NCBI GenBank assembly: GCA_963713605.1
Contig: CAVQMO010000001.1
Span: 544,001-608,000 of the forward strand
DNA: 64,000 nt
Direction: 5' to 3'
DNA from: an uncultured Nitrososphaerales archaeon
GTDB taxonomy: Archaea > Thermoproteota > Nitrososphaeria > Nitrososphaerales > Nitrososphaeraceae
Shown here: piece by piece, positions 8,268 through 37,023 of the stretch
Layout of the letters: each line of letters begins with the position of its first letter
How positions within the stretch are numbered: the stretch's first letter is position 1
Position numbers and translations under genes: made by a program
Notes under the pieces: generated by a model
What the model saw: the letters and a program-made list of their open reading frames with translations, nothing else
What the model was told of the DNA's origin: nothing
Database searches by the model: none

Positions 8268-8615
8268 ATCCAGATTTGGTAATCGGCCCGCTACGAGGAT
8301 TTGGATTCGAAAAAGCAAGACTAACGTTTTTACATGAAGAATCGTTACAGCATTGAGTCGTCTCCTTGGTTGCGTGGATGGCTAAACAGCAGCAGGAATC
8401 AGCCTTACAGTTTATGCAGATTAGAGAGTTCTCATGATATTCGCTTCGGCTGCATTCTAGAGGAGCACATTCTCATACCGTGCACTTTACTACATTATTC
8501 ATATTCTAAGTATATTCAGGGTAAGGATGGCATATAGTTAATCCATACTGGTGCGGGTGTAGATGTGTTACAAGGTAAAGCATGATCCTAGGTAATAATA
8601 AATAGAAAAAATGCC

Positions 8616-10040
8616 ATGATACGCCTGGGGTTCAACTTGGCTGATGAAAGTGAAAATAGGAGTAAAGATAAAGCAGAATATGTCAAGCCGCAGATACGGC
8701 TAGGTCTTAAACCTAATATCAATCAGTTTTTGCTCTTAATACTAGTAAACGCCTTCGTGGGTGCAATGATCGGTCTAGAACAAACAGTCGTTCCACTCTT
8801 AGGAAAAGAGGAATTTGGTCTAGAGTCCAATGTTCTAATTTTATCTTTTATTGCTAGTTTTGGGATGGTTAAGGCTATTCTCAACCTCTTTGCAGGTAAA
8901 CTATCTGATAGGTGGAACAGGAAAAAGGTCTTAATTTTAGGCTGGCTATTTGGTATACCTGTTCCTCTCATACTACTCTTTGCGCCAAGTTGGGACTGGA
9001 TCTTGATTGCAAACATAATGTTAGGAGTAAATCAAGGTCTAGCGTGGTCAATGACAGTAAACATGAAAATCGATTTGGTCGGAAAAGAGAAAAGAGGTCT
9101 GGCCTTGGGACTAAATGAATTTGCTGGCTACATCTCTGTTGCCATTGTAGGCTTCCTGACAGGTTATCTCGCAGCCGCTTATGGTTTGAAGCCATACCCA
9201 TTTTATTTGGGAATAGCATTTTCACTATTGGGTTTCATTATCTCCGTTACCTTGGTTAAAGATACTTCAAGATTTACCGAACTAGAACTACGGCAAGACA
9301 AGGAGGAGCAACTAAAAAGAGAACACCAGAAGAACCAAGAAGAAGGTGATGAGAGTTCAATAATAAGGAAAAAACCTGCAATAGAGAAAAGTGAAACATC
9401 CGTAAATTATAATCAGGAAATCGAAAATGATAATCTAAAATTCAAACAGGTATTCATTGAAACATCTTGGAAGAATCGTTCCCTATTAGCAGCGAGTCAA
9501 GCGGGGCTTGTCAATAATTTGATTTTTGGTGTGACATGGGGCTTATTTACACTCTACTTTGTTTCATTTGGAATAAGTGTAAGCGATACCGCATTTCTAA
9601 AGGCGCTACATCCTGGGGTGTGGGGGTTCTTACAACTTGCAACGGGCCCGCTAAGTGACAGAGTAGGTAGGAAGAGACTCATTTATCCTGGTATGATTAT
9701 TCAAGCAGTTGGTATCTGGATAATATTATTCTCTGCAAGTTCTTATTTTGGATTAATCATGGGGATGTCACTTTTGGGCGTGGGAACAGCCCTTGTATAT
9801 CCTACACTTCTTGCCTCAATAAGTGACATTGCGAATCCACACTGGAGGGCTACATCATTGGGTGTTTACAGATTCTGGAGAGATTTGGGTTTTGTATTTG
9901 GTGCTGTTGGTATAGGTTTTCTAGCGGACGCAGTTGGCTTAAACATCGCCATTCAGGCAGTCGCATGGATTTCTTTGGGGTCAGGAATATTTGTTCTGTT
10001 GGTTATGCATGAAACCAGGATGCCTGGCAGGTCAAATTAG
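8616..10040 (+). CDS. MFS transporter
   Basis: ~12 hydrophobic segments, GKLSDRWNRK and GPLSDRVGRK loop motifs. Confidence 0.92.
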   Translation: MIRLGFNLADESENRSKDKAEYVKPQIRLGLKPNINQFLLLILVNAFVGAMIGLEQTVVPLLGKEEFGLESNVLILSFIASFGMVKAILNLFAGKLSDRWNRKKVLILGWLFGIPVPLILLFAPSWDWILIANIMLGVNQGLAWSMTVNMKIDLVGKEKRGLALGLNEFAGYISVAIVGFLTGYLAAAYGLKPYPFYLGIAFSLLGFIISVTLVKDTSRFTELELRQDKEEQLKREHQKNQEEGDESSIIRKKPAIEKSETSVNYNQEIENDNLKFKQVFIETSWKNRSLLAASQAGLVNNLIFGVTWGLFTLYFVSFGISVSDTAFLKALHPGVWGFLQLATGPLSDRVGRKRLIYPGMIIQAVGIWIILFSASSYFGLIMGMSLLGVGTALVYPTLLASISDIANPHWRATSLGVYRFWRDLGFVFGAVGIGFLADAVGLNIAIQAVAWISLGSGIFVLLVMHETRMPGRSN

Positions 10041-10086
10041 ATATGATGATATTGTTGTGAAATTCATCGCCTTTTAACAACTCAAT

Positions 10087-10118
10087 CGAACCCGCATACA
10101 AAGTTCCGAATCCCACCG
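10087..10118 (+). repeat. att-like remnants of the tRNA-Lys 3' end
   Basis: tccgaatcccaccg (10105-10118) = tRNA 7115-7128; cgaacccgc (10087-10095) = 7127-7135. Confidence 0.75.
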
Positions 10119-10532
10119 GAATTACAAATGTTTTGTTATTCCCATTGGTTAGCGCCTCCCGTAGACACTACGACCAGGCGGCCGAAGGTACTTTCGAGGG
10201 CTAACCCTGACTGGCTGGCTCGGCTCATCACACGACGGTTGCCACCCGAAGAGTGGCCCGCTGGTCTCAAAAAGCGTATGGAAGATATCAAGGTTATCGT
10301 TGACATGACAATTGCAACATGATGGAGCAGTTATATTGATGAGGTCTGACTGATGAGGTCTGACGAACAAACATTCCAACTTTTGGATAGGCAAACCATA
10401 TTTGTACTAATAGGGAATCAATTTTCAAACCGCTTCCGATGTGGATACCACAAAACTAGAACCGATGTCTGTCCGGCTTAATTACTACTGAAGAACATTG
10501 GGTCATAAAATTATGTCAAATATGGTTTATGG

Positions 10533-10868
10533 GTGTTCGTTAGGACCGCAATAGAAAATGGGGAAGGTTCACTGGATAAGGAATCAACTAGTCATGAGGG
10601 CCTGCTTGATAGTTTCAGAAATGTCCTAGATATTCTTGCGGAACGAGTGTACAATGACACTAAAACAGACGTATTCGAAAATAATATAGTATCACAAAGC
10701 GGGGTTCCAAAATCAATGGTTCAAATCTACTTAAATGAATTAGAGTCTCGGTGCCTCGCCGAGGAAGTACGACCTAGACCTAGCGGTGTGGACTTCAGAC
10801 TATGGAGGATAAAGAAACAAGGGGTTAGAAGCGTTAGAGGATCAAGACCTGAAATAGTATACATCTAA
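10533..10868 (+). pseudogene. Chimeric ORF: terminase-like C-terminal fragment (10542-10619) fused to a winged-helix fragment
   Basis: RTAIENGEGSLDKESTSHEGLLDSFR, then SGVPKSMVQIYLNELESR..LWRIKKQG. Confidence 0.55.
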
Positions 10869-10904
10869 TATATTCCAGCGATACTCTACATATAATGGCA
10901 AGAA

Positions 10905-11234
10905 ATGATTAAGGGAGACGAACTATTCATTATTGGACTTATCAGCGTGATTCTATTCCTAGGACTAAAAATACAACCGACGTTTAGTCAGTCGCTTATA
11001 GAAAATGTATCAAGCAGAAATAGCAGTACTATTAGTAATAGTACAGCGGAATCAATAGCAGAGAAGGTTGTAGATCCAGAGTCACTAATACTAGGCATAC
11101 CTGATCAGGCCGGAGAGAATGACACACTAGATCGAATGATTGGTGAATGCGGAATAATCGAGCCCAGTAGTGAGATGGAAGAAGGTGAAGAAATCGGTGA
11201 GTGTCAAGAAAGGATTCTTAATACGACAGACTGA
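10905..11234 (+). CDS. Small secreted acidic protein
   Basis: Hydrophobic N-terminus, N/S-rich linker, two Cys. Confidence 0.55.
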   Translation: MIKGDELFIIGLISVILFLGLKIQPTFSQSLIENVSSRNSSTISNSTAESIAEKVVDPESLILGIPDQAGENDTLDRMIGECGIIEPSSEMEEGEEIGECQERILNTTD

Positions 11235-11370
11235 CATTGCCACAAACAAAGAATGAAATGAAGGCTAACTATAGATATTTTGCACTTGCAACCCTCTATA
11301 GTAATGGACATCTAAGGCCACGTCGAGAAGAGGATAGATAGCCCAAGCATTACTTGGGTTTAGAGGGGTA

Positions 11371-11448
11371 TTACGACGAAAAGATACCAGTCATGATGCC
11401 TTATTTGATAGTCTTAGGATGTATTCGATGTTTTGGCAGTCCCACTGA
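11371..11448 (+). repeat. Terminase-tail repeat copy
   Basis: Translates KDTSHDALFDSLRMYSMFWQSH*. Confidence 0.75.
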
Positions 11449-11971: not shown

Positions 11972-12065
11972 AAACTTCACATGATAAACTGAGGGATACA
12001 TTCAGATTGTCTTTGCAGTATGGTGCGTCACTGAGGACTTCAGGCTTTCACTGCAGTTCTGGCAT
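11948..12065 (+). repeat. Two adjacent terminase-tail repeat copies
   Basis: EGLLDE../TSHDKLRDTFRLSLQY (11948-12021) and DFRLSLQFWH (12036-12065). Confidence 0.75.
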
Positions 12066-12274
12066 AATTGGATAATAACTATTAATATGATAGTGTGTGT
12101 GCCAGAAGTCCCACACAAAGCCAAGATTGGTTCTGAAGTAGCACCTTTATGGTAAGTCTGACCTCCAGATTCTCCTGGAAGATGCTGTCTTCTGTGATTA
12201 CTTGAGCATTTAAGGTTTAAATCAATAGTGACGATTTTCCCATGATAGAATGGGATATGCGTTTGTTGCTGCTG

Positions 12275-12328
12275 CATGACCTGACGGATGCATTTAGAAT
12301 GTCTTTGCAGTATTGGAAAAGCGACTAG
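12275..12328 (+). repeat. Terminase-tail repeat copy
   Basis: Translates HDLTDAFRMSLQYWKSD*. Confidence 0.75.
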
Positions 12329-12424
12329 GCGAAAGGAATTTGTGAAGGGATTTTTATCGCTTAATCCCTTGAAACCAACTCGACAAAACCTTAAATCTTG
12401 TTACCATTAGTGCTTCTGGCAGAG

Positions 12425-12751
12425 ATGGCAGAAGATACGAGAATAGATGAGGGCACACTAGAAAGAATCTGGTCGAACTTGATGAACCACTTATGTGAAA
12501 GGCATGGGAGGCAGGCTAGAAATGTAAACCCTACATCGGACAATCCTAGACCTACTGATTGGGAGATAGAGAACCTTCGAAATGGACGTTATGGCGGATA
12601 TGATAATGCGGCATACTTCAGAAGACATTTGGCAGAACTAGCGAATCGGTATCCTGAAATACAAATTGAAGGAGATGTTATCAGGCTTACACCCCAAGGT
12701 GTAGATTATTGCAATTCCAATTTTCCAGGCTGGCAAAGAGAATTTAAATGA
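12425..12751 (+). CDS. Hypothetical protein, possible winged-helix
   Basis: C-terminal IQIEGDVIRLTPQG resembles a wHTH wing; T-run follows the stop. Confidence 0.5.
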   Translation: MAEDTRIDEGTLERIWSNLMNHLCERHGRQARNVNPTSDNPRPTDWEIENLRNGRYGGYDNAAYFRRHLAELANRYPEIQIEGDVIRLTPQGVDYCNSNFPGWQREFK

Positions 12752-13452
12752 TTTTTTTCCTTCGGGCGTGGTGTTTCATATGCATCTTGAACTCTTGGAA
12801 ACGACCCTTTAGACCGTCCTATATTCTATCCCACCTATCGAAAGTTTGGCACCGACAACGACCGTGGAGAGCAGTCCCTGAGTTAAGTGGGCTGTTCCCC
12901 TTATTAGGATCGCATGCCTAGTCACGAAGTATGTAGTATGGTAAAGAGTAGAGTTGGTGTAGTCAAGTCACTAGCATGAGAGATAAGGTTTAGGGAATAT
13001 TCTATCAAAGGCAATACCCAGATGCCACTGAGTTGAAGGTTCCACTGACAGACATTATGTTTGTTACAAGTGAAATTTTGATTCATGAATTTTCGCCTAT
13101 CTTAAAACCGATATCTCGGTAAATCGACGACCTCTTTTTCTATTAAATGGCCCTCAGCGATATAATGGTCCAACGCATATCATTTTATTATGACAATAAC
13201 CTACGAATAAAGTGGTTTGTCTCACTCCTGGCGTTTAATAAATAATAGACTAACTGCACACACGCAGGAAAATCGGAAGTTCGAAGGGGATAATCAACGT
13301 GATGTGAAATACATATACGTTGCATTCATTTACCAGACTTAGAATCCTGTTATCGCACCGATATCCGAAGTTCATATGACTTTTGGCCAAAAATGATGCT
13401 CAAAAAAGCGGCTCTATTAGTGTACTTGTTCTTCCACCTGCCGCGATCTGTT

Positions 13453-13980
13453 CTAGTCCTGGCCGATGATCAGGCGAGCGTGCCGACTATCCCTCGACGA
13501 CCGCAGGAGACCAGGGAACAGGTGGCCGATGGCTTCGTGCACAAGGTCAATCGCCTCGCCCCCCTTGAGTTTCGCGGGGTCCTCGACCTCGGGCACGGTT
13601 TGGCCGAGTTGCTTGACCCGTTCCAGGAATCCCATAGTCATGGCTTGCGCGAGAGGTGAGATCGGCGCGTCGAGCGGTACCACGGGTTGATTGAAAACGG
13701 GCACTGGCCGCGCGACGATGTCAGGCCAGGTCTCTGGCTCTCGCGGAACGTCGAGGGTGAACACCCGACTGAAGTCGGGAGCGTCGGCGTCGCGGGCGGT
13801 GAAGGGCAGGCCAAGGTTCCATCGCTCACGCAGCGTGCGGATTACCGACGTGTGACGGTAGGTGTCGGTGACGACGGTCTTCTCCGGGATCCATGGCGAT
13901 ATCGCAATTGCCGGGAGGCGGATGCCTAGGCGGTTGAAGGTGAAGCCCATCTGCCCGGGCGGCCTGGAAGCGACGAACAA
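13453..13980 (-). pseudogene. 5'-truncated phosphoesterase / phospholipase C family fragment, GC-rich, bacterial-like
   Basis: FTFNRLGIRLPAIAISPWI..YRHTSVIRTLRERWNL..TARDA; 13741-13800 is 42/60 G+C against an AT-rich background. Confidence 0.85.
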
Positions 13981-14766
13981 TTTGCTTGCCATGTTTACAA
14001 ACAAGATATCTGGCAGACATGACGGCGATACTGTTTCGGCTTTGTCAGTACCTCTATTATGAGCGACAACGCGAAGCAAATCTGAAACATTTGCTCTCGA
14101 ACCAATCTATTAATCTTCGTCAAGTTAAGATTAGAATGAATACACGAAATGATTCAGAAACTAAACACCGATACAGATACTACAATTATTACTAGTAGTA
14201 TACAGCTCAACATACGGACTGGACTATCGCTGTTCATACGGTGAAATGAAAAGTGGAGTCGGTTAGTTAATGTTTATGAACTGACAGAAATAGTTTGGTT
14301 ATCGATCGTCTGGTTAGCGGTAAAATGCACGTTTATGAATATGTATTATGAATATGTATTCATCTAGATGATGGGGCAGATAGTATTATTACCGATCTAT
14401 GAGAATTTTGAAGCAATTAGGGCCAATGGTTTTTTCCTGTTATCATTAACTATTCATCTGTAGATCGCTCGCTACCATTTGTTATTAGTTGTTATTTTGA
14501 ACCATATTGATGGGGGTATCGAGCACCAACTTTGGCCCGTAGTAATATAAAGAATATTAAGTATTATACAGTCTTGGCTTGACAGTATACGTGCCATCAC
14601 TGCGTTCTAGCATCTGCTTATAATGTGCAAAAGTACTTGCTCGTGAACAGAATCGCAAAAAGATTATCCTCGAATATATGAAAGCGGTCGATACACTAAC
14701 CATTAGTGATGAATACAAACTTCACAAACAGCGCAGCGTGCCGCTTACGAAGATAAATTAAAGAAC

Positions 14767-15096
14767 GTGCCAAAAGTCGAACAACTTCAAGAGCAGCTCA
14801 CCTATAGAATAATTGAGCAAGATTCACTCAAAAGAAAATATGAAAAAGATATGATTCAAATTTGCAGTATCATTCAGCGAAGCGCTAGCTACGATGATGA
14901 CGGATTGGCTACCTTCCTTAGGATGAAGAATTGCGATAACCACCGTCTTGATACAGACGGTGAAGATTGGCCGGCAATTGATTGGAATGAAGTGGGTTTG
15001 AGTAAGCGATTTGCAAGCCTAGGCGATTCCGATATGGCGTGGATTCATAGAAGATTGGCGGAGTCAATAGCCGCTTATTTAGACTTATGGAAGTAG
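14767..15096 (+). CDS. Hypothetical protein
   Basis: 109-aa ORF, no recognisable motif. Confidence 0.4.
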   Translation: MPKVEQLQEQLTYRIIEQDSLKRKYEKDMIQICSIIQRSASYDDDGLATFLRMKNCDNHRLDTDGEDWPAIDWNEVGLSKRFASLGDSDMAWIHRRLAESIAAYLDLWK

Positions 15097-15238
15097 ATTA
15101 AGGGTGTTACTAGTAAGGAAGCTTCAAGGTCTTGAGCGTAAAAGTGTGTAGATATCGCTATCGACTTATAAGAAGAACAAGGCTAGTAAAGCGTTGTATC
15201 GAAAGCTCCCTTATATACGAGCGACATGATACATATAG

Positions 15239-16344
15239 ATGTTGGGGATAAACACGGATTTCTCCCTATGGATGGCAGTCGTAACCATATTCTTAGTACT
15301 GGGCTTTGGACTTGCGCCAGCAATGTTTTTTCCTACATACGGGTCAAGCGACAATAGTAGTCTTCCAAAAGTATCAGACAAAAATGTAAGCGGAATAGAA
15401 AACGGTAATGTTACTACAAAAGGCAATGTATTTTTAAATCAAACAAAGGATACAGCAGGCAATCAAACTGTTTTGGCTATTAATAGCACTAATACTACGA
15501 GCGCAAATGGGACTAATGCAAAAATACTTACCAACGCATTGCAGCAACCGCTAGCGCCTTTGCAGCCATTACGTGGTTTATTGCCTGCACCATCTCAATC
15601 GCAACAACAACAACAACAACCCTCCACCTTACAACAACAACTACCACCTTTACAATCACCACTTAACCTTATCCCACCCCAATCATCACCACAACAACAA
15701 AATCCCCTTCCTCTCATGCAACCTTCACAGCAACTGCCCCCGCCTATAGGTGGTCCATTAGAGCAGCTAGGCCAAACGCAAGGCTTTCAACAACCATTCA
15801 CTATGATGCCTCCTCCTTCCACTCCACTATATCCAGTCCCATCATTTCCTTATGCAGAATATAACTATCAGCCTCCGGTGATCTTGAGCCAATCTTCATA
15901 CGTCAACAATATCGGCAGCATGCATATTGTAGGTGAGATCTTGAATCAAGCCCCAGTGACTGCCAAGTTTGTTAAGATTATAGCAACTTTCTACAATGCA
16001 AATGGTCAAGTTATAGGAACTAGCTTTACATATGCAGATCCTTCAGATCTAGCACCCGGCCAAAGACTCCATTTAACATTATTGCATCAGAAGGAAGCGT
16101 GCCCATGTACCAAATGAGTAGTTATGGATTAACGGTTGACCCAAGTAATATGCCAACGAGTTATCCTTATGTCTATCAGCCATCGCCAAGCGGAAACTGC
16201 AGCCCTTTGTATCCCGATATATGCATACCACCGCCGCCCCCCGTGTTGAACTGTAATGACATTTCAGCAAGAAACTTCAGAATAATTGGACTTGATCTGC
16301 ATAACTTCGATGGAGATAACGATGGCATTGGCTGTGAGGAATAA
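15239..16344 (+). CDS. Secreted Q/P-rich protein with FxLYD-like Ig domain and C-terminal excalibur-like Ca-binding domain (frameshift ~16070)
   Basis: Signal/TM segment; HIVGEILN..VKIIATFYNANGQVIGT..LAPGQ; CSPLYPDICIPPPPPVLNC..FDGDNDGIGCE. Confidence 0.75.
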
Positions 16345-17422
16345 GGAATAAATGAACCTGATCTCGCAGTAGAGCACCATCTATGATTACACTGGCCTGT
16401 TAAACGAATGTGGAAGATCGATCAAGAGCAAGAGCAAGCAAAGCAAGAGCAGTCTGAGATTAGTACAAAAATACAATCTACTTAGTCTTCGAATAGATCT
16501 GAAAGTGATTCTAATTCATTCCATGCTTATTGCCATCAACTATTTTCATAGCATCAACTAACTATTTCTTAATTGATTCGTCTTCATCTTGAAAGAGCCG
16601 CAAGACAATATCGAATAGAATCTTCTACATAGATGAAAATAGTTTCATAGAGAATGTATAACTAAACAAAATAAATCATTGTTCCTCGCAAGACGCATGG
16701 TAACTCCAAAGAGACTAACTAGAAAATGCACAGAATGTGATGGAATGATGGATGGCGAACTTCAACCCATTCAAAATGAAGTTCCGCTGTCAACATATCA
16801 AAAAATAATTCCGGTTAATTATATGCCCGAAATCATGAAAAACATCATTTCTACAAAGTTTTAATATATAATAACTATGGATATCTAAAGATATTTTAAT
16901 TTTGGATCATTGGAGAACAAGATACGGAAACTTAGAAGCGAAATCATAGATTTAGAGTTCAAAAAGAAAGAACTGAAAGATACTCTTATTCTACAGAATG
17001 CTCAATTATTAGATCTTGGCCGAGCTATTACGAAATTTCAAAATCTATCAATAGCGAGAAACAGTAGCTAAGTACCAACGCAGCCAACGCCTGTCAGGTG
17101 TTGGCTTTGGTAAAGCTACAATGCAGATCGGTGATTCCGAAGTATACTATCGGTCCTGTTTCCGTCCGCAACATATCTCCCGCCCCCCCAGACTTGCGAT
17201 CACTTATCCCTTCATATGTCCCACACCTTCAACTTCCTTTTTCTCTTTGTCTGAAGCGACATCCTTTCGTTATCTCCCTATCAGTCTGAGCAGTCTCCAT
17301 AATGAGAACGCGGAATTGTATAACTAATTCTTGTCCTTTAAGAGCAGCGCAGTAGAATAATAGTATCGTTCTTCGGCCGCTTCCGGTCTATGCTGGTTTT
17401 AGGCGTAAATCAGTATTATCTA

Positions 17423-18547
17423 TCAAGAAAGTTTGCTGTATGTTGAAACTTGGCAATCACTAAATATTGATCTTATATCAAAGTCATTAGCTCTGTTTTG
17501 GTCTATATTCTTCTGTCCTTGAAACAGCTGGCCAAATATAGCATTTTGTTGATCGGTGATTATTTGACTATTATCTGAGTTTATCTGCACTGCAAGTCTT
17601 CTGTTGCTTTTGCCACTGTACTGCTTGTTGTCGTCATCGCCGTCGCTATTACCATTGTTGTCTCCCCCTTCGGACGGAGTAATCTTATCGTCACCGTTGC
17701 CATTGTTGCTTTCAGGGATTCCTTCCACTGTCATTATAAAGGTACCGCCGCAGTTAGTTGCAGGAAGTGATGGAAACCATGGAGCTATTATTTGCGAAGG
17801 GGTCGAGACGCCACCCACACCACCAGCCGCTGCCATGGGATATCCGGCACCTGGATAGGTTCCTGTAGGAGGATAAACGGTCGATGGGTATGTTGTACCT
17901 GAAGGTGGATAAACATTAGGGGGAAATATTGTACCTGAGGGTGGATAGTATGATGCTTGTGGTTGCACTGTGGGAATTGTAGACGTTAAGGGAGAAGATG
18001 GAAAAAATTGTTGCTGTTGAGCAGTAGATTGTGGAATAAGCTGCTGAGTAGTAGATGGCTGTTGAGAAATTAGTGGTTGTTGTTGTATAACCTGTCCAGG
18101 GGCAGGAATCTGTTGTTGTCTTGACAGAGTAGCATTAGGTGTAGGCGTGATTGTTTCCTGTTGCTGAACTTGTGGTTGTTGCGCCTGTCGTTGAAATGTG
18201 GATGGCTGTTGCTGTATTAGAGGAATCGTAGGTTGTGGCTGCTGCACTTGGACAGTCTGATTTGATGGAACAGCTGACCCTGAGGTAGTATTTCCTGTTA
18301 TTTGTTTAGCACCAGTCGTATTCTGCGTGCCTATAGGACTGAGGGTAGCGTTAGTAGCGGTAGTTGTTGTCATAGAAGAGTTGCTATTAGGCGGTGCTCC
18401 ATCAAGGAGCGACGGCAAGTCAGATACCTGTCCATTAGCCTGCTGTAATACGCCGCTAGAACCCATAGCGATGTAATTAATCACTGCGAACCCAACCGCA
18501 AGTGCCAGAGATCTTAAAGTGATCATCTGTAAAACGGGCAATGCCAA
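17423..18547 (-). CDS. Secreted low-complexity Q/P/T-rich protein with YPPSGT repeats
   Basis: Reverse complement at 18547 reads TTG GCA TTG CCC (MALP), so minus strand; signal-like N-terminus. Confidence 0.7.
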   Translation of the reverse strand: MALPVLQMITLRSLALAVGFAVINYIAMGSSGVLQQANGQVSDLPSLLDGAPPNSNSSMTTTTATNATLSPIGTQNTTGAKQITGNTTSGSAVPSNQTVQVQQPQPTIPLIQQQPSTFQRQAQQPQVQQQETITPTPNATLSRQQQIPAPGQVIQQQPLISQQPSTTQQLIPQSTAQQQQFFPSSPLTSTIPTVQPQASYYPPSGTIFPPNVYPPSGTTYPSTVYPPTGTYPGAGYPMAAAGGVGGVSTPSQIIAPWFPSLPATNCGGTFIMTVEGIPESNNGNGDDKITPSEGGDNNGNSDGDDDNKQYSGKSNRRLAVQINSDNSQIITDQQNAIFGQLFQGQKNIDQNRANDFDIRSIFSDCQVSTYSKLS

Positions 18548-18726
18548 CTATAATAATAATATTAAATGTTATGTAAACTTTCAGATAAATATCTAGAGAT
18601 AAAAAGCAGTCCTCCTTAGATACCGAGTACTAGCAAGGTCTTCTATAGTAGAGAAAAAATAAATTTCTAAATGTATAGATAACCTCTCTCTAAACCGAGA
18701 AAGAGAAGTAAATCCGAGACGTTCTC

Positions 18727-19047
18727 CTATGGCTAAAGCATAGGATAGGAGAACCAGAGAATATTCTTGATTACTATAGTGAGGAGCAGATCTGGCAAAT
18801 GAGATGCGGAGATAATATGCAGATCATCCCAATCAACTTTCAGAAGAGGCATAAAGAGATGCTGCAGTCGCAGCTGATGTCCAAGAGATTTATCAAGATA
18901 CACCCATCATTTCATAAGTTGATTGTATCTCTAAGGACGGCAGTAGTTATCGATGACTGGAAGCTGGACAAACAGCAAACATCTCATGATGATATACTGG
19001 ATTCATTTAGACTCTCCCTATGCAGTTATGAGCCTCCAAGTAACTGA
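18727..19047 (+). pseudogene. Putative terminase large subunit, C-terminal nuclease-domain fragment (longest copy)
   Basis: LKHRIGE..IIPINFQKRHKEML..IKIHPSFHKLIVSLRTAV..LDKQQTSHDDILDSFRLSL; HDDxxD resembles the last acidic motif of terminase RNase H-like domains. Confidence 0.65.
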
Positions 19048-19295
19048 TGTATTGTACGCTCAATGATCTCACGCCATTAGCACAATTTCAATGAAACGGT
19101 AAGGTGTGCGGCCGTCAATGTCAGGTACTGGTGCTCCTGTGAATATAATGGCATTAGGGGCTCCATCGAATGTAATAGCATTATTGTTGATATAGCCGCA
19201 AAAGTTCTGGCACCGACAATACAAAGATACAGTATAAGATTGTGTAGCTATACTCTCTAAGACTATTAAATAGTGCTTTTCAAAAAGGAGATCGA

Positions 19296-23261: not shown

Positions 23262-23273
23262 AGAAGTATCTTA

Positions 23274-24588: not shown

Positions 24589-24613
24589 GAGAAGCCAAGA
24601 ACCGTGATTACGA

Positions 24614-25071: not shown

Positions 25072-25738
25072 ACTTACATCAAATCAAAAAAAGTTCGTTG
25101 CAGAAGTAGTAGGTACATTCATTGTAGTCGTCTTGGCCACGGGCGCAGTAGTAATTGATGCTAAGTTCCATGGAATATTTGGCATCCCATTTATCGCATT
25201 CCTTCCATTCATAGGAGTGGCGGCAGGAGTGTATTTATTCAGTAAAACATCTATGGCGCACTTTAACCCGGCTGTGACGCTAGGGTTTCTGATTACCAAA
25301 CATATTACAAGGCTACAACTATTATACTATTTTACCGCCGAAATCTTGGGTGCGTTACTAGGAAGTCTTTTTGTAATGTATATAATTGGAAGAGAAGCCA
25401 ATTTGGGCGCAAACTCACCCAATTATGCATATCCATTGTCTATGATATTTGGGATTGAATTATTGGCTTCTGCATTACTCATGGCTGTAATAATAACAGT
25501 GGTTTATACGAATGGTTTGAGGGGATATGGGGGACTTGTCATAGGTGGAATAGTCGGACTTGACATATTTTTTCTCGCTTTTATATCTGGAGCATCAATG
25601 AATCCTGCACGTTCGCTTGCTCCTGCATTAACTTCTGGGGTTCTGGATAATTTATGGTTGTACTGGAGTGCCACATTTATTGGAACTTCAATTGTTGCAT
25701 TGCTTGTTAGAAAAAAGTTTGCAGACAAGTTTCGATGA
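25028..25738 (+). CDS. MIP/aquaporin family channel (probable arsenite efflux)
   Basis: Two NPA motifs (HFNPAVT, SMNPARS); in ars cluster. Confidence 0.92.
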   Translation: MQQTFLSLKKKTIDKLTSNQKKFVAEVVGTFIVVVLATGAVVIDAKFHGIFGIPFIAFLPFIGVAAGVYLFSKTSMAHFNPAVTLGFLITKHITRLQLLYYFTAEILGALLGSLFVMYIIGREANLGANSPNYAYPLSMIFGIELLASALLMAVIITVVYTNGLRGYGGLVIGGIVGLDIFFLAFISGASMNPARSLAPALTSGVLDNLWLYWSATFIGTSIVALLVRKKFADKFR

Positions 25739-28164: not shown

Positions 28165-29448
28165 CTAGGGTGTTTGTGAAGATAAGATGGTTAACGTCTT
28201 AAAGTCTCTGACTGGATCTGAAAGCCAGCCAAAAAGATCTTCCAGAACCTTTTGATCTATTGGACCTCCAAGAGCAGTCTTCCATTGAGATGAAGGGTAG
28301 AACAAATGGCCGAGGTCCGGATATGTTATCAACGTATGATCAGGATGCCTTACTTCTGTCAGTTCCTGCTCTAAAAGAAATGCTTGCTGTATGGGGGTGT
28401 CTGAATCATTCTTTCCTTGTTGTATTAAAATAGATGTATCGGAAGGAACTTTACTTATGATATCCAAAGTAGGTGTCAGAGCGAATTGTGATGTAAGCCA
28501 AATAGGACACGGACCTTCTAGACCATTACACTTCTCACCCGGTGTCACAACTGATACTGATTTTAGATTGTCTATTAACCTGGGTTTGAGTTCGTCATTA
28601 ATACTTATGAATGTGTCATTATTTGTGTTATATTGGGGATTCAGTTGGTCTGCTGTTGTTCCATTGACCGTAGTAATGTTTTGAGCAAGGATTAGAGTGA
28701 TATTTCCGACCAAAGTACTAAAAACAGGATTCTCAGACGCTTCTTGTACTGATATCAATCCATTGTGATTATGGTCCAGAACCTGTTGAGCGTAGTGTAT
28801 TGGGTTCGTAACACCTTGGAAGTATCCTATTTCACGCAAGTTTTGGGCCACGGCCCCCATCAGTACAATATTATCTACTTTATCTGGATTGTCGATTGCA
28901 ACTCTTGGGACAATCGTTGTACCCTCGCTATGTCCAACTAGAGTTACATGGTTAGCATCAACTTCTGGTTGCTGTATAAGAACATTTAGGGCCTTCTCTG
29001 CATCTTGCCTTAGTTCATCAACAGTTACATTCCCCCATACATTGCTATCCAGAACTGTCAGATTCGCGCCAAAACCTCTCTTGTCATACTGCAATACTGC
29101 AATACCTCTTTCTGAAAGATATTCGGCTATATCAAAGAACGGTCTACCAGGCGGATAAATAATTGAGCCTGTTTCGTTATCTATGTGAACGTAGCCTGCA
29201 GTTTCATTCATATCCGTGGTTCCAGAGCCAGGTACAAGGAGAACACCTGGGAAGGGACCGTCCCCATTGGATGGAAGATTTAGCCTAGCGTTAGTCTTTA
29301 AACCATTACCCAAATCTATAACCATATTTCTATATTTTGTTGTCTGCAAGTCCGATTGAGCATGAACTGTGAGGGCTACACCACAAAATAAGAATGATAT
29401 TGAATAAACTGAAAGAACTACTGCTATTATCTTTAATGACAAATGCAT
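28165..29448 (-). CDS. Secreted alpha/beta hydrolase (serine aminopeptidase-like), paralogue 1
   Basis: Minus strand (revcomp ATG CAT TTG); GPFPGVLLVPGSG, YDKRG, GHSEG nucleophile, GKNDS, YPDLGH. Confidence 0.9.
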   Translation of the reverse strand: MHLSLKIIAVVLSVYSISFLFCGVALTVHAQSDLQTTKYRNMVIDLGNGLKTNARLNLPSNGDGPFPGVLLVPGSGTTDMNETAGYVHIDNETGSIIYPPGRPFFDIAEYLSERGIAVLQYDKRGFGANLTVLDSNVWGNVTVDELRQDAEKALNVLIQQPEVDANHVTLVGHSEGTTIVPRVAIDNPDKVDNIVLMGAVAQNLREIGYFQGVTNPIHYAQQVLDHNHNGLISVQEASENPVFSTLVGNITLILAQNITTVNGTTADQLNPQYNTNNDTFISINDELKPRLIDNLKSVSVVTPGEKCNGLEGPCPIWLTSQFALTPTLDIISKVPSDTSILIQQGKNDSDTPIQQAFLLEQELTEVRHPDHTLITYPDLGHLFYPSSQWKTALGGPIDQKVLEDLFGWLSDPVRDFKTLTILSSQTP

Positions 29449-29579
29449 ATGATAATGGGCCTTTTTACTTAAGGATTACTTGCGGGAGGGAGCGATTCTT
29501 CGGTAGTCTTTTACGTATTTATGTTCTATCTACGGGGATACCCCGTGAAATGAATAAATCTAAATATTTTTAATGAATA

Positions 29580-29894
29580 ATGACTAGTATGTCCAACCAA
29601 CCGGAAGATAAGAGAGAAAAGAGACTTGGAAATTTATCCAACCTCCTGAGAGGCATCGACCGTTCGGATATGGAGTTGACGATGGGCCACTTATCACTTG
29701 AGTTCTATAGACAAGCAACATTGGCTGAGGGCTATGTCCATAACGGAGAAATAGGCGAAGCGGAAAGTCACAGGCTTATCGCAGAGGCAATACACGATAT
29801 CTTAAGAACGCTAGAGGTAAAAAGACGTGAGGCGGTAGAGGCAGAGATAGCACCCAGTGTTACTGATATTCAACGAATAAAGGAGGAGGAGTAG
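29580..29894 (+). CDS. Hypothetical helical protein
   Basis: 104-aa ORF with upstream TATA-like taaata; a terminase-tail repeat follows at 29918-29943. Confidence 0.55.
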   Translation: MTSMSNQPEDKREKRLGNLSNLLRGIDRSDMELTMGHLSLEFYRQATLAEGYVHNGEIGEAESHRLIAEAIHDILRTLEVKRREAVEAEIAPSVTDIQRIKEEE

Positions 29895-31618
29895 GTGACT
29901 TACGAGGAATCATAAATCGGCTTTCTGGCAGTTCTGGCACTAATAAAGTCAGTTAGTCTGGCAACAGACGCCAAGCGTGATAAATTATCTTTGCCTCCTG
30001 ATTACTGTTTTTGTCATTGTCGCTTTGCTTTAACCCTGGACCCGAAGGTCGAGGAAGGAAGGGAGGTATATGCAGTATAGTCAGTTGCTTTAACAAACCT
30101 ATTACTCAATGCCCAAAGTGCACAAACTATTATTGCAGAGACGAGCATTACAAAACACATTTTCATTTATTAAAGATAGGACCCAGAATATTACAGCCCG
30201 ACAGACGAGTGTTTAATTTAGTGTTACTAATAAGAGAGTAACTAAGTAATGAATTTAGGCCGTAAACTATGTATCAAAATTTAGATTGTCTGCTAAAAAA
30301 GTAGGAAAGCATGGTAAGATTTGCAATAGGTCATTTATTTCGACCAGCAAGAGTTCATTCTTTTTCCTTTCCTTTTCTTTCGATATTATTTGCAACTCTG
30401 GCATTGCCTAAACTATTTTTTAGGATCTCAGATCTAGGGTAAGGTAATGATGAGGATGAAGTTGTTGTCGCTTGGTTGGCTATCAGATAGACATGAGTAT
30501 TGCTGTCATAGGTTTGCTGGCGCTACTGGTTGCCAAGTCGCTCACGTGCCTAATGAATGTCTTTCTGAATTAGTAGCGAAGCAATCCTTGAAATTTGAAG
30601 ACGAATTTACAGGCCGATATAGATATCGAATAACTCAGAGGGGAAGCCGGTATTTAGCCCTATTTCAAGATTAATCCGTAACAGTCGTAATGCACTAGTT
30701 TTTAGGATCTTCTACGTCAAAGCACCGAGATTATGTGTTGGTCAGACCTCCTTCGGATTGATGTTAAACATGCAATGTTCCTAAGGCTAAAGAACACGAA
30801 TCCCTATAGTAAGAAGGGTTTTACTAGCCAATACCCGACCAGCAAAGAGATAAGATACCAAGCCAATGCAATCCAAGTCAAGGCATGTCTAACTAACTAA
30901 CCTAACTTTCGATTGTTTATTCTTTATTCTTTGCTGCAGTTCTAGGGTTTTCTGTACGTTTATGCTTTGGATTTGCTAAAACCCTGTTTGTAACATTGGC
31001 GGAGTGTTTCCTAAATTCATTCATCTTTGCAGATACAAATGAATCTAGGTGCTTTTGTTTTTACTGCCAACTCATTTAGGCGTCTATGTCTGTCAGCATC
31101 TATGTCATTATTGAAGACATTCGACGGGGGAAGTTGACGCGATATCTTGTATCCTTGAGTTGTCCATTTGCTTTCTCAAAGGTTTGCCCAAGCAGACTTT
31201 TTTATCGACTCTCATGACGACCTATTGAAGTATTTACAATATATGGTGTCCATTTTGTCCTGGGAATAATGATCTTCACCACCACCAACAAACCTCTAAA
31301 TATTTTATTTAACACGTTAAGAGGAGTTTCCACTTGTCAAGTTCATCTGAGAGAGAAAATACACTAAGCAGTCTTGGCAGAAAACTAGGTCGCGAACTAG
31401 GCGACGATTTCAGAAATGCTGGGAACAAACTGAAGGATATTTAGATTCGTGACTTTGAGATTCAATCTAGCAGAGGTATTTGCTGACCGGAATGATCTCA
31501 TCGAAGCGGCATACCATAGGACGTTGGCCTACAACACCCAGGGATATTGAAATGATGATCGAATGAATAATGAGATGAGATGAATCCTAGTGAACTAGGC
31601 AGCAGGATGTAAGCAGTT

Positions 31619-31849
31619 CTGGCATTGAATGATTCATAAATAACTATTACGCATAAGAAACATCTTTGAAAAACGGAAGTCAGAAATGAGAAAATCGAAG
31701 CAATCTAGCATAAAACAGGACAAAAAGGGTTTACTGGGCACTGCAGAGAGTAATGCAGTTGTCAAAGAAGGCCAAAGACGACGACAGATGCAAGATGAGC
31801 AACAAAGAAAGGTTAAGGATTTTATGGATAGCATAGAATATCGAGCCAA
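31619..31849 (+). repeat. 231-bp direct repeat copy 1 (one mismatch to 36113-36343)
   Basis: Direct comparison; starts at ctggcattga and holds the 5' part of the 36180-36446 ORF. Confidence 0.95.
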
Positions 31850-31945
31850 CCCGTTCTAATTTCATTACTTCACTTCCCTTCCGAGCTTGAATTAAATTCT
31901 TAGAAAAAATTCTATATTCAGGTACTCACTGAATCGTCAAGAATA

Positions 31946-33347
31946 CTACGGACTATCAGAGAGTACTCCAGTCATATTGCTGTTGCTGCTGCCAGTTTCA
32001 TTTGCTCCAGAAGGCGTCGTAGTAGTCATATTACTGAATGCGGGAGTTAAATAGGGATATGAAAGCCCAGAATGAGGTTCGAGCCATGAATAAAGATCTG
32101 CTAAAACATACTGTGGGATGGGTCCAGATAAAGTCGACATCTGGGGCGAAGGATAGAACAAATGGCCGAGATCCGGATATGTTATCAATGTATGGTCAGG
32201 ATGATTTACGTCAGTCAGTCTTTGTTGCAAGAGAAAGGCTTGTTGAACTGGAGTCTGAGAATCATTTTCACCATTAAGCATTAGTATACCCGTAGAGTTA
32301 GAGACGTTACCAATCACACTTAGAGGTGGTATTAGATTAGCATATGATTGGAACCAGCGAGGACATTCGAGTTGATTACATTCCAAACTAGTCATATTAG
32401 AAGTGTGATTTTCGTATCTCTTCGTCAGTGCAGGCTTATATTGTTCATCAATGCTTATAGAATCATTTGTATCAAAATCCTTTGCCAAGGCACCGGATAT
32501 AGCTTCCGTTTCACTTGGCGTTGGATACTTACCGGAAGATAAGAAATTATAAATGTATGAACCAGAATTGAACTTATATAATGAATTTAATAATGTAAGA
32601 TCCTTTGCTATTTGCTGAACTGATATCAATCCAGTATGATTTTCATCTACGACTTGATGGGCGTATTCTACTGGCGCGAGTACATCTTGATAATACTCTA
32701 AATCTAGGGCATTCATTGTACTTATTCCCATAAGTTACAATATTCTTAACATTTGTCGAGTTGTCGATTGCAACTCTCGGAGCAATGATCGTACCTTCAC
32801 TATGACCGACCAGACTTATCCTTTTTGGATCAACTTCAGGTTGCTGCATGAGAACATTCAATGCTTTTTTGCTATCTTCAATTAGATCGTTGATTGTCAT
32901 ATTCCCCCAAATACTAGTGTTAATAACTGTGCCACCTTCGCCTATACCTCTCTTATCGTACCTGAGTACAGCAAATCCCCTCTCTGTAAGATACTGAGAT
33001 ATCTGCCAAAATGGTTTAGCATTCTCTGCCTGTGTTTCATTCATATCATTCGTTCCAGACCCATGAATAAGAAGAACACCAGGAAATGGTCCATTACCCA
33101 CAGCTGGAAGTGTTAATTGAGCCCTAGTCTTTACTCCATCACCTAAATCAATAACCATGTTACGATATTTTTTTGTCTCCAAATCTTGTTGAGCAAGGAT
33201 TGTGAAATTATTACCAGACATTGCGAAAGATATAGAATAAAGAGCAACGGCTGCTACAGTACCTATTAACAGCATTCCAAATATTGCTAGACATCTAAGA
33301 CTATAGTTTGACATAGAACAAAAGATATGATGAAAGTATTTAAACAT
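31946..33347 (-). CDS. Secreted alpha/beta hydrolase, paralogue 2 (frameshift ~32735)
   Basis: GPFPGVLLIHGSG, YDKRG, GHSEG, GENDS, YPDLGH. Confidence 0.85.
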
Positions 33348-33429
33348 TTATCTATACGATTCATACGTAGTCTTGGAACAGGAACCGATCTAACTCGAAA
33401 TTTTTTTCTCGAATTAAATTTCGTGAATC

Positions 33430-33937
33430 CTAATCGAATATCCTGTATTCAGTCGGCGATACCCCCCGTTTCAATTTGATATGTTGAATTCTCCCATTTT
33501 CATAAGATCTAATTACTTCGTAATTGGGATCATCCTTCGAATCATCGTCCTCTATCAAACTGTAAAAGAAAGGTTTAGCCTCTTCGTTCTGAATAGTATC
33601 TAACTGGTTTATGTGAGGAACTAGGTCTTGATTCAATGAAGTTAATGGAATATTATCTTCTAATAGATAGAATTACCCATCCATGACATAACAATTTACC
33701 ACTTGGCAACAGGGTTAATTCGGTATTGCAGTGAATGCAATATTGTGCCTCTTCCAACTTGCCTTCCTTTGTTATTCTAGGCGAAAGATTATCCCTTACG
33801 ATAACTTGGATCTTGTCTTCTTTCAATTCCTCACGGTCAATCATTCGCCTATCAGCCGGATGAAAGCCTAAGTCAACCCGTTCACTTTCAGCCTTGCGTG
33901 AAAAAGGATAGTTAGATGGTTTATTATGGATCTTCAA
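33430..33937 (-). CDS. Hypothetical protein(s), possibly one frameshifted Zn-ribbon gene
   Basis: Adjacent ORFs 33653-33937 (CIHC..C) and 33430-33636. Confidence 0.4.
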
Positions 33938-34468
33938 TTACTTTTCTGAAGGTTTTTCATTTCCGTTTCCCTTTCCCTTTCCCTCTCCCTTGCCCTCTCT
34001 GAATTCCTTGGGGTCAAGCAATAGACCTTTATCAAGTGCCGCTTGCTTTGCGGCGTGCCACCTTTGATAATCTGTTAATCCTGGAATCCTTGAACCATTA
34101 CCGTTGTAATTAATTCCTCTATTAATCGGATAGAATCCCGTCTTATTTGCATCAATCAAATCCTGAATGTCTCCGGCCAGAAAGTCTTCGAACTTTGTAA
34201 CTGTATACTTACGATTGTCCACAAAGAATATTTCCAAACCCGTTGTCATTGCTATGGCCACACTCCAAGGATACGCCTTACATGGTTCGCCAAATCTCTT
34301 CAAGACACCCTTAATATTTTCTGGCGTATCAGCAATGTAATAACGATTCATCTGACCTACAATATGGGAATTAATATTATCTCGAATCAAATTCTGGTTT
34401 AACCCTTGGTATAACATAGCGACCAATGTTAAACTGACATTGATGAATGAAATCGTCATAAATTCCAA
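33938..34468 (-). CDS. Hypothetical protein, probably 5'-truncated
   Basis: 176-aa ORF abutting the truncated hydrolase at ~34480. Confidence 0.5.
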   Translation of the reverse strand: MEFMTISFINVSLTLVAMLYQGLNQNLIRDNINSHIVGQMNRYYIADTPENIKGVLKRFGEPCKAYPWSVAIAMTTGLEIFFVDNRKYTVTKFEDFLAGDIQDLIDANKTGFYPINRGINYNGNGSRIPGLTDYQRWHAAKQAALDKGLLLDPKEFREGKGEGKGKGNGNEKPSEK

Positions 34469-34485
34469 TGTCTACACTCTCTTAA

Positions 34486-35263
34486 AAAGGCAACACTAAT
34501 TGGGCACAGTGAAGGTACTAACATACCCCCAAGAGTTGCCGTCGATAACCCAGATAAAGTCAAGAACATAGTCCTAATGTCTCCAGTAGCTGAAAAATGG
34601 CGTGACATGATATATTCCCAGGAAGTTGCATATCCTCTTCGCTATGCTGAAAGTGTATTAGACAAAGCTCATACCGGACAGTTATCAGTGGAGGAGGCAT
34701 CAGGAGATCCTATCTTTCAGGAGTTGGTGGGTGGCAACCTTATACAGCTTCTTCTTACCCAAACCAATTCTACTGATAGTCAGAATGGAACAGCGCAGCA
34801 ACCACTCCCTAAACAAAACAATACCAGTGATGATCTAATTAGTATTGAAGATGAACTTATCTGCACTTGTAACGGCATATGAAAATGATACATCTCCAGA
34901 ACCATCATTGCTGTCAGCCAAATGCATTAACTTCTTTGGCTGCCCCAGCTACGGAAAATCGTTTCTGCTCTGCATAGCGTCATCGGTATGATAGGTAACG
35001 TGTCTTCAAATACCAGTATCCTTATACTCGAAGGAGAGAATGATAGTCAAACCACACCCGGGCAAGCGTTACTACTGCAACAACGACTAACAGAAGTAAA
35101 TCATCCTGATCATCTAATTATTGTCTATCCAGATCTTGGACATGGATTCGTTCCCTCCAATCAATGGGTAACCTCACATGGCCAAATGGAAGAATATGTA
35201 TTTCAGGATATGTTTGAATGGCTCACATCTCCAGCAAGAGAGGTCAATGAACAGGGACGATGA
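34486..35263 (+). pseudogene. Alpha/beta hydrolase paralogue 3, N-terminally truncated and frameshifted
   Basis: Starts abruptly at ATLIGHSEGTNIPPRVAVDNPDKVKNIVLM; later EGENDS, YPDLGH. Confidence 0.85.
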
Positions 35264-35675
35264 AGAAGTCGAGTTTAAATCCAACTGATTAGTCGACTGA
35301 TTAGTCGACGAGTAGAACCATTAATTACACTACCTCTTCCACCAATACTATGTATAAGAGGCTGCAGGAATTTCTAGTATCAAACATCAGGCTCAGGCTC
35401 GGGCAACAACAATAACAACGATAACAACGGACAACAACAACAGTCAGAAAGTCAAGCACAAAGCCAAAGTCAAAGCGTCTGTATACTCTGCACAACAAAC
35501 TAAGCAACGGGTACATGCATACCGTACACCCCTGACTGGTGGGGGACCGTCCAAAATCTTCTAAATTCGTCCAAGATGTTTTAAAGACAGATTTCAAATG
35601 GATTGTCAGAATAGATTTCAAGATTTGTTAACATGTTCATCGTGTTTTTATATTAGAAAAATGTTGTATAACATT

Positions 35676-35965
35676 GTGTCAAGTCGAAAACTATTCCATT
35701 TCGAGTAACAGAGACCGACTTTCATACACTTACAGAGCTTGCCAAACGTCTCCACCAGATGGGGGAGTTAAAACATGATAATCCTCATATGCTTTCCAAG
35801 GAGTATACTTTTGCTTTTGCCAATATCATAATGAAGATGCATAACTGGGTCCAGACTTCAGACCAGGATGAGGCGGTCTTTGCACTAGCCAGAGGAATGG
35901 CCAGCACGTTAAACCCAGGCCAGCAACAACAGCAACAACAACAAGCAGGAATACCAGGACGGTGA
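35676..35965 (+). CDS. RHH-like small protein with poly-Q tail
   Basis: In-frame upstream extension of the 35759 ORF: KSKTIPFRVTETDFHTLTELAKRL; start codon uncertain. Confidence 0.5.
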
Positions 35966-36112
35966 ATGTAAATAGTCGAGGCTAATTGGCAAAGGAAGAC
36001 TGAAAAGACTGGATATAATGACAGATACGATGATTGTTCTGGCTCTAGTATTGGTAGTGATGATAGTGGCTCATCTTCAGACGATGACGATAATGTCCAA
36101 TCGCAAGCTGAG

Positions 36113-36343
36113 CTGGCATTGAATGATTCATAAATAACTATTACGCATAAGAAACATCTTTGAAAAACGGAAGTCAGAAATGAGAAAATCGAAGCAATCT
36201 AGCATAAAACAGGACAAAAAGGGTTTACTGGCCACTGCAGAGAGTAATGCAGTTGTCAAAGAAGGCCAAAGACGACGACAGATGCAAGATGAGCAACAAA
36301 GAAAGGTTAAGGATTTTATGGATAGCATAGAATATCGAGCCAA
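36113..36343 (+). repeat. 231-bp direct repeat copy 2
   Basis: Matches 31619-31849. Confidence 0.95.
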
Positions 36344-36446
36344 GATAGATCCTGATTTAGCGGGCATCTTCGATACCCTCCGAGAAATGAATAATAGAAT
36401 CGAAGAAATCTTGAGCCTACTGAAAAAGACAAGGAAGGGGAAATAG
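36180..36446 (+). CDS. Small coiled-coil hypothetical protein (intact copy)
   Basis: 88-aa ORF; truncated duplicate inside repeat copy 1. Confidence 0.55.
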   Translation: MRKSKQSSIKQDKKGLLATAESNAVVKEGQRRRQMQDEQQRKVKDFMDSIEYRAKIDPDLAGIFDTLREMNNRIEEILSLLKKTRKGK

Positions 36447-37023
36447 CGGTATTCGCTACAACCAGACTAGAATATAGTCACTGAATGGACCGATACCCAT
36501 TGTAATTTAGTTACAGAATGCAGATATTCGCTAAATGGAAGGACGATTTAAGGCCTCCCAACTGATAACTGGACAGATCTAGGCCCATTATTTTCCATCG
36601 AACCCGTGTCAATCTTGTCCCTTTTTATGCATCCTTATAGTTTCCAAGGTTAAAGATTATGAGAATTCAGAAGTGGAATCTTCGCCCTTCGTTTATATAC
36701 ATTGAATTAGCCAGAAACTAGCAGCACTATCCAAGACGTTTAAACTATTATTTGACTATCTTAGACTTCCTGGAAATTTAACTGAGCAGGCCTTTATATT
36801 CATGGAGAACACGGACAGACCCCTCGACGGAGTAGAGAAATGTTCTTGGATTTTGACTTTCAAGCTCAGGGTCAGACAAAAGAACATGCTTCAGGAACAG
36901 TTAAGAACTATTTTGGAGCGGAATAGGGTTTATCTCCATAATTCCTAACTTACTAATCGTTTCTAGTTATGGTCCCTACGTCTCTACAGTTTCTTTAATC
37001 TTGTTCAAGTTTTGATTAAACTT

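Follow-up and report, generated by a model that had tools for sequence, protein, structure and literature searches.

Recurrent terminase gene tails in genomic islands of an uncultured Nitrososphaeraceae archaeon, most likely footprints of capsid-less integrative elements

Five genes for the terminase large subunit (TerL) are mentioned for thaumarchaeal genomes in the available part of Krupovic et al. 2019 (PMC6563490). One of them belongs to NitKor-E1 of Ca. Nitrosopumilus koreensis AR1, where it was considered enigmatic and a likely relic. We analysed a 64,000-nucleotide stretch of DNA (hereafter, the window) of an uncultured Nitrososphaerales archaeon of the family Nitrososphaeraceae (assembly GCA_963713605.1, contig CAVQMO010000001.1, forward strand, positions 544,001 to 608,000), in which the 3′ end of the terL gene recurs within a genomic island. 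These pieces, called tails here, are most likely the footprints of small integrative elements that possess no portal or capsid. Like NitKor-E1, as far as its available description goes, the elements feature a small subunit (TerS)-like gene directly before TerL, a tyrosine integrase, no other head-tail virus or virion gene and a thaumarchaeal host. NitKor-E1, the closest described case, is a single element, whereas the present family is diverse, some relatives contain many intact copies per genome, and the tails number more than 100; the comparison is by description only. Judging by gene content, NitKor-E1 may belong to a large functional family.

Tycheposons of Prochlorococcus (Hackl et al., 10.1101/2020.12.28.424599), in the part of the account available, similarly combine an integrase, a replication module and cargo, integrate serially at tRNA ends and form islands built from degenerated elements and partial tRNAs; their packaging-related genes are a capsid protein and TerS. 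The elements described here encode a TerS-like protein and a full TerL instead, and it is the terL tail that piles up. Phage-inducible chromosomal islands (PICIs), including the Staphylococcus aureus pathogenicity islands (SaPIs), usually carry TerS only, and capsid-forming PICIs (cf-PICIs) carry capsid genes as well. The order integrase, replicase, packaging module is common to these islands and the present elements, and helper dependence is likely here, but TerS and TerL without portal or capsid match neither group. PICI-like features (an integrase, a replicase, att boundaries and small size) were found in 11 of the 26 assessable loci. Integrons are attC cassette arrays. The tails resemble them as a repeat at the joints of exchangeable genes, locally in one orientation; unlike in integrons, there is no hairpin and there are no fixed ends, the repeat is of coding origin and dispersed over 59 clusters, and the integrase targets a tRNA. 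The elements resemble tRNA-targeting, cargo-carrying satellites and are not integrons.

The earlier archaeal satellites pSSVi and pSSVx belong to spindle-shaped viruses (10.1101/2025.02.15.638363). This report and three others (PMC11849493, PMC13573593, 10.64898/2026.08.12.739948), in their available parts, deal with viruses of ammonia-oxidizing archaea or with other archaeal satellites. Full-text literature searches, with most subscription papers outside their scope, returned no description of a capsid-less TerS-TerL family building islands or of piled-up terL tails. The same TerL family, at 32–46% identity, occurs in head-tailed viruses and proviruses of Nitrososphaeria, including the Nitrososphaera provirus L142 and the IMG/VR contig L050; both possess portal and capsid and are helper candidates. 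Portal and capsid genes adjoin terL in 24 of 30 IMG/VR loci, in contrast to 1 of 79 genome loci. Six portal-bearing rows group apart in a TerL tree used for this grouping only, as it was built by a quick method, contains one wrongly picked row (L071) and gave long-branch warnings. The elements are predicted to be satellites of head-tailed archaeal viruses with an entire packaging motor and no capsid.

The available part of Sheridan et al. 2020 (PMC7603488) attributes the large genomes of soil Nitrososphaeraceae to lateral transfer followed by duplication; its main text does not contain the words terminase, phage or virus, or the word beginning transpos-. The elements described here are a candidate vehicle for this genome growth. 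Tails could provide a countable marker, one per cargo delivery, with tail length as a rough clock. Since a C-terminal TerL probe matches 86 of 151 family genomes (a tally including the unpublished G013, G062, G161 and G164), soil viromes can address the question. A longer probe matches 13 of 13 congeners, including G013.

Terminase identity of the motif and its copies in the window

The first-pass annotation of the window had interpreted a peptide-coding motif recurring at gene boundaries as the 3′ end of a terminase gene, and the terL family indeed matches phrog_2 (terminase large subunit, E 2.3e-17 and 7.1e-22). Searches of Pfam and PHROGs with the window fragment alone returned no family, and the identity comes from longer copies elsewhere in the genome, in which the motif is continuous with an ATPase-nuclease gene preceded by a helix-turn-helix (HTH) gene. 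The predicted TerL model resembles T4 gp17, Sf6 gp2, D6E and HK97 TerL (E 2e-16 to 4e-12); a PDB sequence search alone with TerL found nothing. The protein comprises an N-terminal packaging ATPase and a C-terminal RNase H-type nuclease. Residues D481 and D484, which we take to be catalytic in the nuclease, are invariant in 11 intact TerL proteins and are located 10–13 residues ahead of the stop. The motif is the last acidic nuclease motif, containing the last two invariant aspartates, together with the C-terminus of TerL. The gene family is under purifying selection, with saturated synonymous sites. A single-protein scan of viral contigs for TerL homologues was empty and an alignment scan was positive; the related loci were assigned to Nitrososphaeraceae or to higher ranks of it. 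At a conserved linker, nuclease halves of types A, B and a third type are fused to ATPase halves that they share (L032, L033, L018, L037-L040), and many A remnants begin at this linker. The C-termini of TerL vary with the type, possibly because the helper portals differ.

Tail profiles trained on tails outside the window recovered seven copies in it, every one on the + strand. The B-type tails are located at 10540-10635 (59.6 bits; last codons replaced, in frame with the open reading frame (ORF) 10533-10868), 11381-11441 (24 bits, match 11381-11438), 11973-12020 (23 bits, match 11973-12019), 12038-12067 (short; match 12038-12065, 10.3 bits, E 0.007; position weight matrix score 25.8) and 12276-12321 (20.6 bits, match 12276-12316). 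The A-type tails are located at 18732-19047 (match 18732-19044, E 2e-59), covering about 105 codons of the nuclease domain, and at 21875-22012 (match 21875-22009, 118 bits). A block beginning at 10617 is repeated at three other places in the genome and also occurs in congeners. The B-type model gave no match in the reversed window or in 10 shuffles. Shuffles yielded two matches of 5.5–6.6 bits to the A-type model, whose single match outside the island (5273, 6.0 bits) is at this level.

Shorter pieces, likewise on the + strand, complete the set. The last six codons of terL are preserved at 29925-29942, where the sequence downstream belongs to a family also found behind tails elsewhere, and a further core is located at 31610-31627 (22.6 bits). 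The 14-nt cores ending at 29942 and 31627 score 22 bits, the highest value in the window, against 1–7 matches of at least 11 bits in shuffles. The exact 11-mer noticed earlier at 12054, 29929 and 31614 was found again, and the − strand does not contain it. A degenerate core at 30389-30406 was recognised by weight matrix (18 nt, 16 bits) and as the start of a block repeated at five other loci, whereas a possible 14-nt core at 19202-19215 (16.1 bits) is borderline and within reach of chance. Alignment revealed a trace of the 5′ part of a tail at 29483-29497, and homology to a tail at C10:1042971 revealed a degenerate trace at 31208-31230. The only support for the last 10 nt of terL at 36113-36122 is that a 98% copy (36105-36343) of 31611-31849 starts there. 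The copies listed by the first-pass annotation were thus retained in part: seven are supported by profiles and two as strong short cores, whereas no profile supports, in the window, the site at 36748-36768, which is beyond the right att remnant of the island, or the eight weak traces at 8380-8420, 10128-10147, 12841-12858, 17340-17410, 22427, 30908-30945, 31368 and 33351.

Two 5′ junctions are spanned with zero mismatches by public short-read contigs (X1, piece 21710-21979, and X9, piece 18698-18856) from runs that may include the source sample. Because these contigs cross the junctions without a differing letter, assembly artefacts are unlikely there. The joints 10567-11385, 12316-21881 and 18712-21917 in public contigs were considered as excised forms and rejected: the intervening letters differ, the sides are short, and the joints are interpreted as other tail alleles.

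Distribution of tails and architecture of the source elements

The window peptide gave 114 matches over 11 of the 15 contigs of the genome. DNA profiles recovered 174 non-overlapping remnants, with no match at E ≤ 1 in the reversed genome, and a protein profile agrees with this census. The stop codon is reached by 112 remnants, 86 of B type and 26 of A type. Coverage is strongly polar, from 3–9 across the ATPase (5′) half to 94 (B) or 25–38 (A) at the 3′ end. Weight matrices extended to short cores gave 161 ends with 117 distinct downstream sequences, a count in which 4 of 26 short cores are units of a 42-bp tandem repeat (C1:720126-720253) and probably false, and in which near-identical segments of C2, C12 and C13 are tallied separately. 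These segments (C2:87000-94600, C12:386500-389318 and C13:8600-16000) are more than 99% identical and represent a recent duplication or a strain duplication in the assembly.

The ends are clustered, with 55% of gaps not exceeding 5 kb compared with 18% expected, and neighbours within 5 kb are on the same strand in 73 of 82 pairs. Restriction to the + strand, noted by the first-pass annotation, is true of the window but not of the genome, where 66 of the 112 tails are on the + strand and 46 on the − strand. Likewise, the 59 clusters, distributed over both strands, contradict the idea of a single array beside one integrase. With matched 60-residue probes, an excess of the 3′ end was found in 10 of 10 genomes, which had been chosen for high copy number; the 3′ and 5′ counts, capped at 42, are at least 42 versus 6 in this genome and 38 versus 6, 22 versus 4 and 14 versus 8 in others. 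Longer tails in G001 loci were given no weight, these loci having been selected by protein matches.

Of the 79 related genome loci surveyed, 30 extend 3 kb or more past terL and 26 extend 8 kb or more upstream of it. The only recurrent genes around them are terL, the TerS-like HTH gene, tyrosine integrases and replicases; the primase and integrase families were identified. Intact elements in related Nitrososphaeraceae are arranged as integrase, (replicase), TerS-like gene, TerL, variable cargo and att. A co-oriented integrase was found in 11 of 26 loci and an oppositely oriented one in none; the TerS-like gene is within 4 kb in 16 of 26. The latter overlaps the start of terL and has HTH matches but no TerS family match. 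Some loci differ in arrangement. In L083, L086, L089 and L090, from another genus, cargo genes are also located between the TerS-like gene and terL. L032:2249-7850 contains a tandem TerS-TerL-cargo pair with no integrase between, its second TerS-like ORF being the C-terminal half only. At L097:9519 and L119:5659, a B-type tail of 225–260 nt begins no more than about 10 bp past an intact A-type terL.

DNA diverges immediately past the terL stop, and the first genes behind 25 intact terL copies belong to 24 families, 16 on the same strand and 9 on the opposite one. Since 13 of these 25 genes have their start or end no more than 150 bp from the stop, the tail might be retained as a promoter or terminator for the cargo behind it. 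This is improbable, as no conserved non-coding signal was found, some members of the downstream families are entirely without a tail, and tails precede cargo of both orientations.

Direct repeats of 13–17 bp flank the integrase-to-cargo segment in L129, L033, L141 and C10:19500 and end 1.2–3.2 kb behind the stop, although repeats of 13–14 bp could be chance. A tRNA-Met island (G000:C10:850575-890650) contains four attR copies and seven tails, all in the direction of its integrase. This integrase is intact, and the island is a cleaner example than the window.

Tails as joints between cargo blocks and their possible formation

Tails are located at the joints of cargo blocks and have been recombined across, as the first-pass annotation proposed. 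Only 4 of the 328 matches between repeated blocks continue through a tail, compared with 22–59 of about 294 at displaced controls (8 draws, typically about 41), in a test where matches of at least 99% were dropped and matches are not independent; by locus, the values are 4 of 124 versus 14–23 of 127. One upstream flank can be combined with several downstream flanks, and one downstream flank with several upstream ones, and the 5′ ends of tails range from about 10 nt to full length. In C10:1129063-1129214, homologous to the locus of the trace at window 29483-29497, a tail and 98 bp stand in place of the trace, and a 150-bp patch is bounded by two tails. Another tail is followed, after 3 nt, by an inserted 549-bp gene that is missing from the homologous locus. 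Clean indels number seven genome-wide, too few to decide; two of them involve a tail, and by the score used no indel does so at both ends. The pair C3:9224 and C12:5840 was rejected as a tail-to-tail exchange, its right end having no tail.

The position of tails at joints, their local co-orientation and the filled and empty pair with crossovers in two tails (C10:1129063-1129214 and window 29497) would agree with the integron-like system envisaged in the first-pass annotation, in which the tyrosine integrase of the element attaches at the tail and adds cassettes serially. However, att is located at a tRNA end (in the window, the 3′ end of tRNA-Lys, with its 14-mer at 7115 and 10105) or at another repeat behind the cargo, 1–3 kb past terL in intact elements; the tail is therefore not the att site. 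Its 5′ ends range from about 10 to 900 nt, and variation of the core follows codon degeneracy, with all three stop codons and six-fold codon switches. A search for integron features in the tails yielded no palindromic attC, no fixed DNA crossover core and no integrase beside an attI. An attC-like hairpin is likewise lacking across 65 tails (mean z −0.21 and −0.11). With no conservation beyond the protein and no hairpin, the tail is not attC-like. The orientation of cargo, which occurs both ways, and the scarcity of indels touching a tail also contradict this system, which is largely refuted and very improbable.

We consider it moderately probable that selection on terL in live elements sets the 3′ edge of tails, that cargo-sparing deletion sets the 5′ edge, and that tails seed homology-assisted shuffling. 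The live element would comprise att, a tyrosine integrase, (a primase/helicase or other replicase), an HTH TerS-like gene, terL, cargo and att. It would be a satellite with its own packaging motor, borrowing the capsid of a helper virus. The variable cargo slot would start right past the terL stop because terL is the last essential gene, and selection on this gene may account for the sharp 3′ edge observed. Elements integrate serially at one att in a single orientation, and tails are therefore co-oriented. Once an element is dead, DNA from the integrase to terL would be lost, with cargo presumably retained by selection; a 5′-ragged tail would therefore hitchhike with each cargo. In this putative order of events, tails, being the commonest short repeat of the islands, would next become the joints at which homology assists cargo blocks in being exchanged, inserted or deleted. 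A site-specific recombinase acting on the tail would not be required.

The origin of tails from different related elements, suggested earlier, is borne out by the 14 undamaged tails compared: all 14 are different synonymous alleles, so that tails stem from many working genes. Most B tails are short (77 of 86 not exceeding 135 nt), and the lengths fit exponential distributions with means of about 95 nt for B (KS p 0.37) and about 320 nt for A (p 0.63). Damage scores are noisy, because core genes of the window are also frameshifted: rpl15, secY and neighbours (2144-5213) are split, probably by assembly indels (secY at 2563-4003), the integrase at 7169-8267 is split as well and may be affected by such errors, and the apparently broken full-length terL genes at C10:221244 and C10:11338 may be intact. 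Among A tails, damage increases as length decreases (rho −0.58, p 0.003, n = 24). Direct fusions of integrase to tail and TerS to tail (C10:466308/466315 and C10:54715/54712) point to deletion.

Several observations weigh against formation of tails by selection and deletion. Damage of B tails is independent of length (rho −0.14, p 0.25, n = 68). Random one-step deletion is rejected, since 89% of B tails do not exceed 135 nt compared with 7% expected, and 5–6 rounds would be needed. Tails (112–161) outnumber integrase (12–22 per position) and TerS (13–20) remnants five- to tenfold. Pieces of these two genes immediately precede 6 of 159 tails and follow none, a polarity in favour of deletion, but the upstream count is barely above that of controls (2–4 of 159). 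Of the 26 loci with sufficient upstream DNA, 15 have no integrase within 8–10 kb upstream, and the queries used revealed neither a helper provirus nor portal or capsid homologues in this genome, which is 87% complete, or in 24 genomes of the family. The last two findings, together with tandem TerS-TerL-cargo units (L032), would also be expected if TerL, with its RNase H fold, acted like a transposase and moved the TerS-TerL module, or one-ended pieces, independently of a virus. Such an activity is extremely improbable: no conserved sequence follows the stop, the full ATPase motifs are retained, and the closest folds are phage motors.

The surplus of tails over other parts of the element could be explained if TerS-TerL cut its own gene at or close to the end, or cut a pac site further upstream with subsequent resection, and packaged the downstream DNA while integrated. 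Lateral transduction is a model for terminase packaging from the integrated state. Incoming fragments would begin with a tail, microhomology would join their left side and homology their right side, and tails would keep acting as start points. Consistent with such cutting, block starts concentrate from −60 to +60 of the stop, recent copies of 95–98% identity start within about 20 nt of it, undamaged tails 61–140 nt in length are present (11 of 45), and the 549-bp gene missing from the homologous locus is 3 nt past a tail. However, no DNA-level conservation marks a pac site: a synonymous-site test of intact genes found no pac-type motif beyond protein conservation, the synonymous identity of the last 50 codons being 0.42–0.63 compared with a gene average of 0.48–0.51 (13, 5 and 3 alleles). 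The different length scales of A and B tails, the shortening of A tails with damage and the direct fusions pointing to deletion are also at odds with it, and we regard terminase cutting as unlikely, though the main rival to formation by selection and deletion. Equally unlikely is the broader suggestion that soil Nitrososphaeraceae possess, in the capsid-less TerS-TerL elements, a standing gene-transfer system, in which packaging starts at or near the terL end, downstream cargo and island DNA are transported into other cells, and the tail of each delivered fragment can anchor or start the next round. If true, it would represent a terminase-driven gene-capture engine behind the genome expansion of the family.

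The tRNA-Lys island and its cargo

The island of the window is 29.5 kb long, extends from the 3′ end of tRNA-Lys (7115) to a degenerate attR (36594) and contains all supported copies; att remnants and resumed synteny confirm the limits given by the first-pass annotation. The tRNA, the att sites, the integrase and the MFS and arsenic-related cargo described below are on the + strand. The anchor is tRNA-Lys(CTT) at 7042-7135 (ARAGORN), found at the same position in 13 of 13 congeners searched. The attL core in its 3′ half (7115-7128) is a 14-mer repeated exactly as the attR at 10105-10118, with 0.24 chance matches expected. This repeat closes the newest element of about 3 kb, which consists of the integrase and the gene for an MFS transporter as cargo (8616-10040, Pfam MFS_1 E 6.6e-44). 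The tyrosine integrase (7169-8267) is distributed over three frames and was identified by phrog_1 (E 4.6e-5) and integrase profile matches; to archaeal XerA it gave only a weak match (E 5e-4).

At the right end, the degenerate attR (36594-36615, 2 mismatches to the 13-mer of the tRNA 3′ end) is followed by the original tRNA flank, the same 8 letters as behind the tRNA in two congeners, and core synteny resumes at 36948-37035. Five congener loci have little between the flanks, with synteny returning 0.2–3.4 kb past the tRNA, which corresponds to window 36948-38235. One congener locus contains an 18-kb island without a detected tail. Locus L168 of this comparison is from the unpublished genome G013.

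According to family matches, the cargo at 23767-25738 encodes arsenite methyltransferase, arsenate reductase and aquaporin; the block, 2 kb long, recurs in several congeners, with as many as three copies. A GC-rich phosphoesterase fragment at 13453-14079 is 91% identical to a congener stretch and is probably a recent bacterial import. The small ORF at 29950-30030, which converges on terL, recurs at at least 13 other loci and is the commonest downstream partner of tails. A secreted alpha/beta hydrolase family is represented three times in the region 28165-35263, and its expansion extends to many further loci of the genome.

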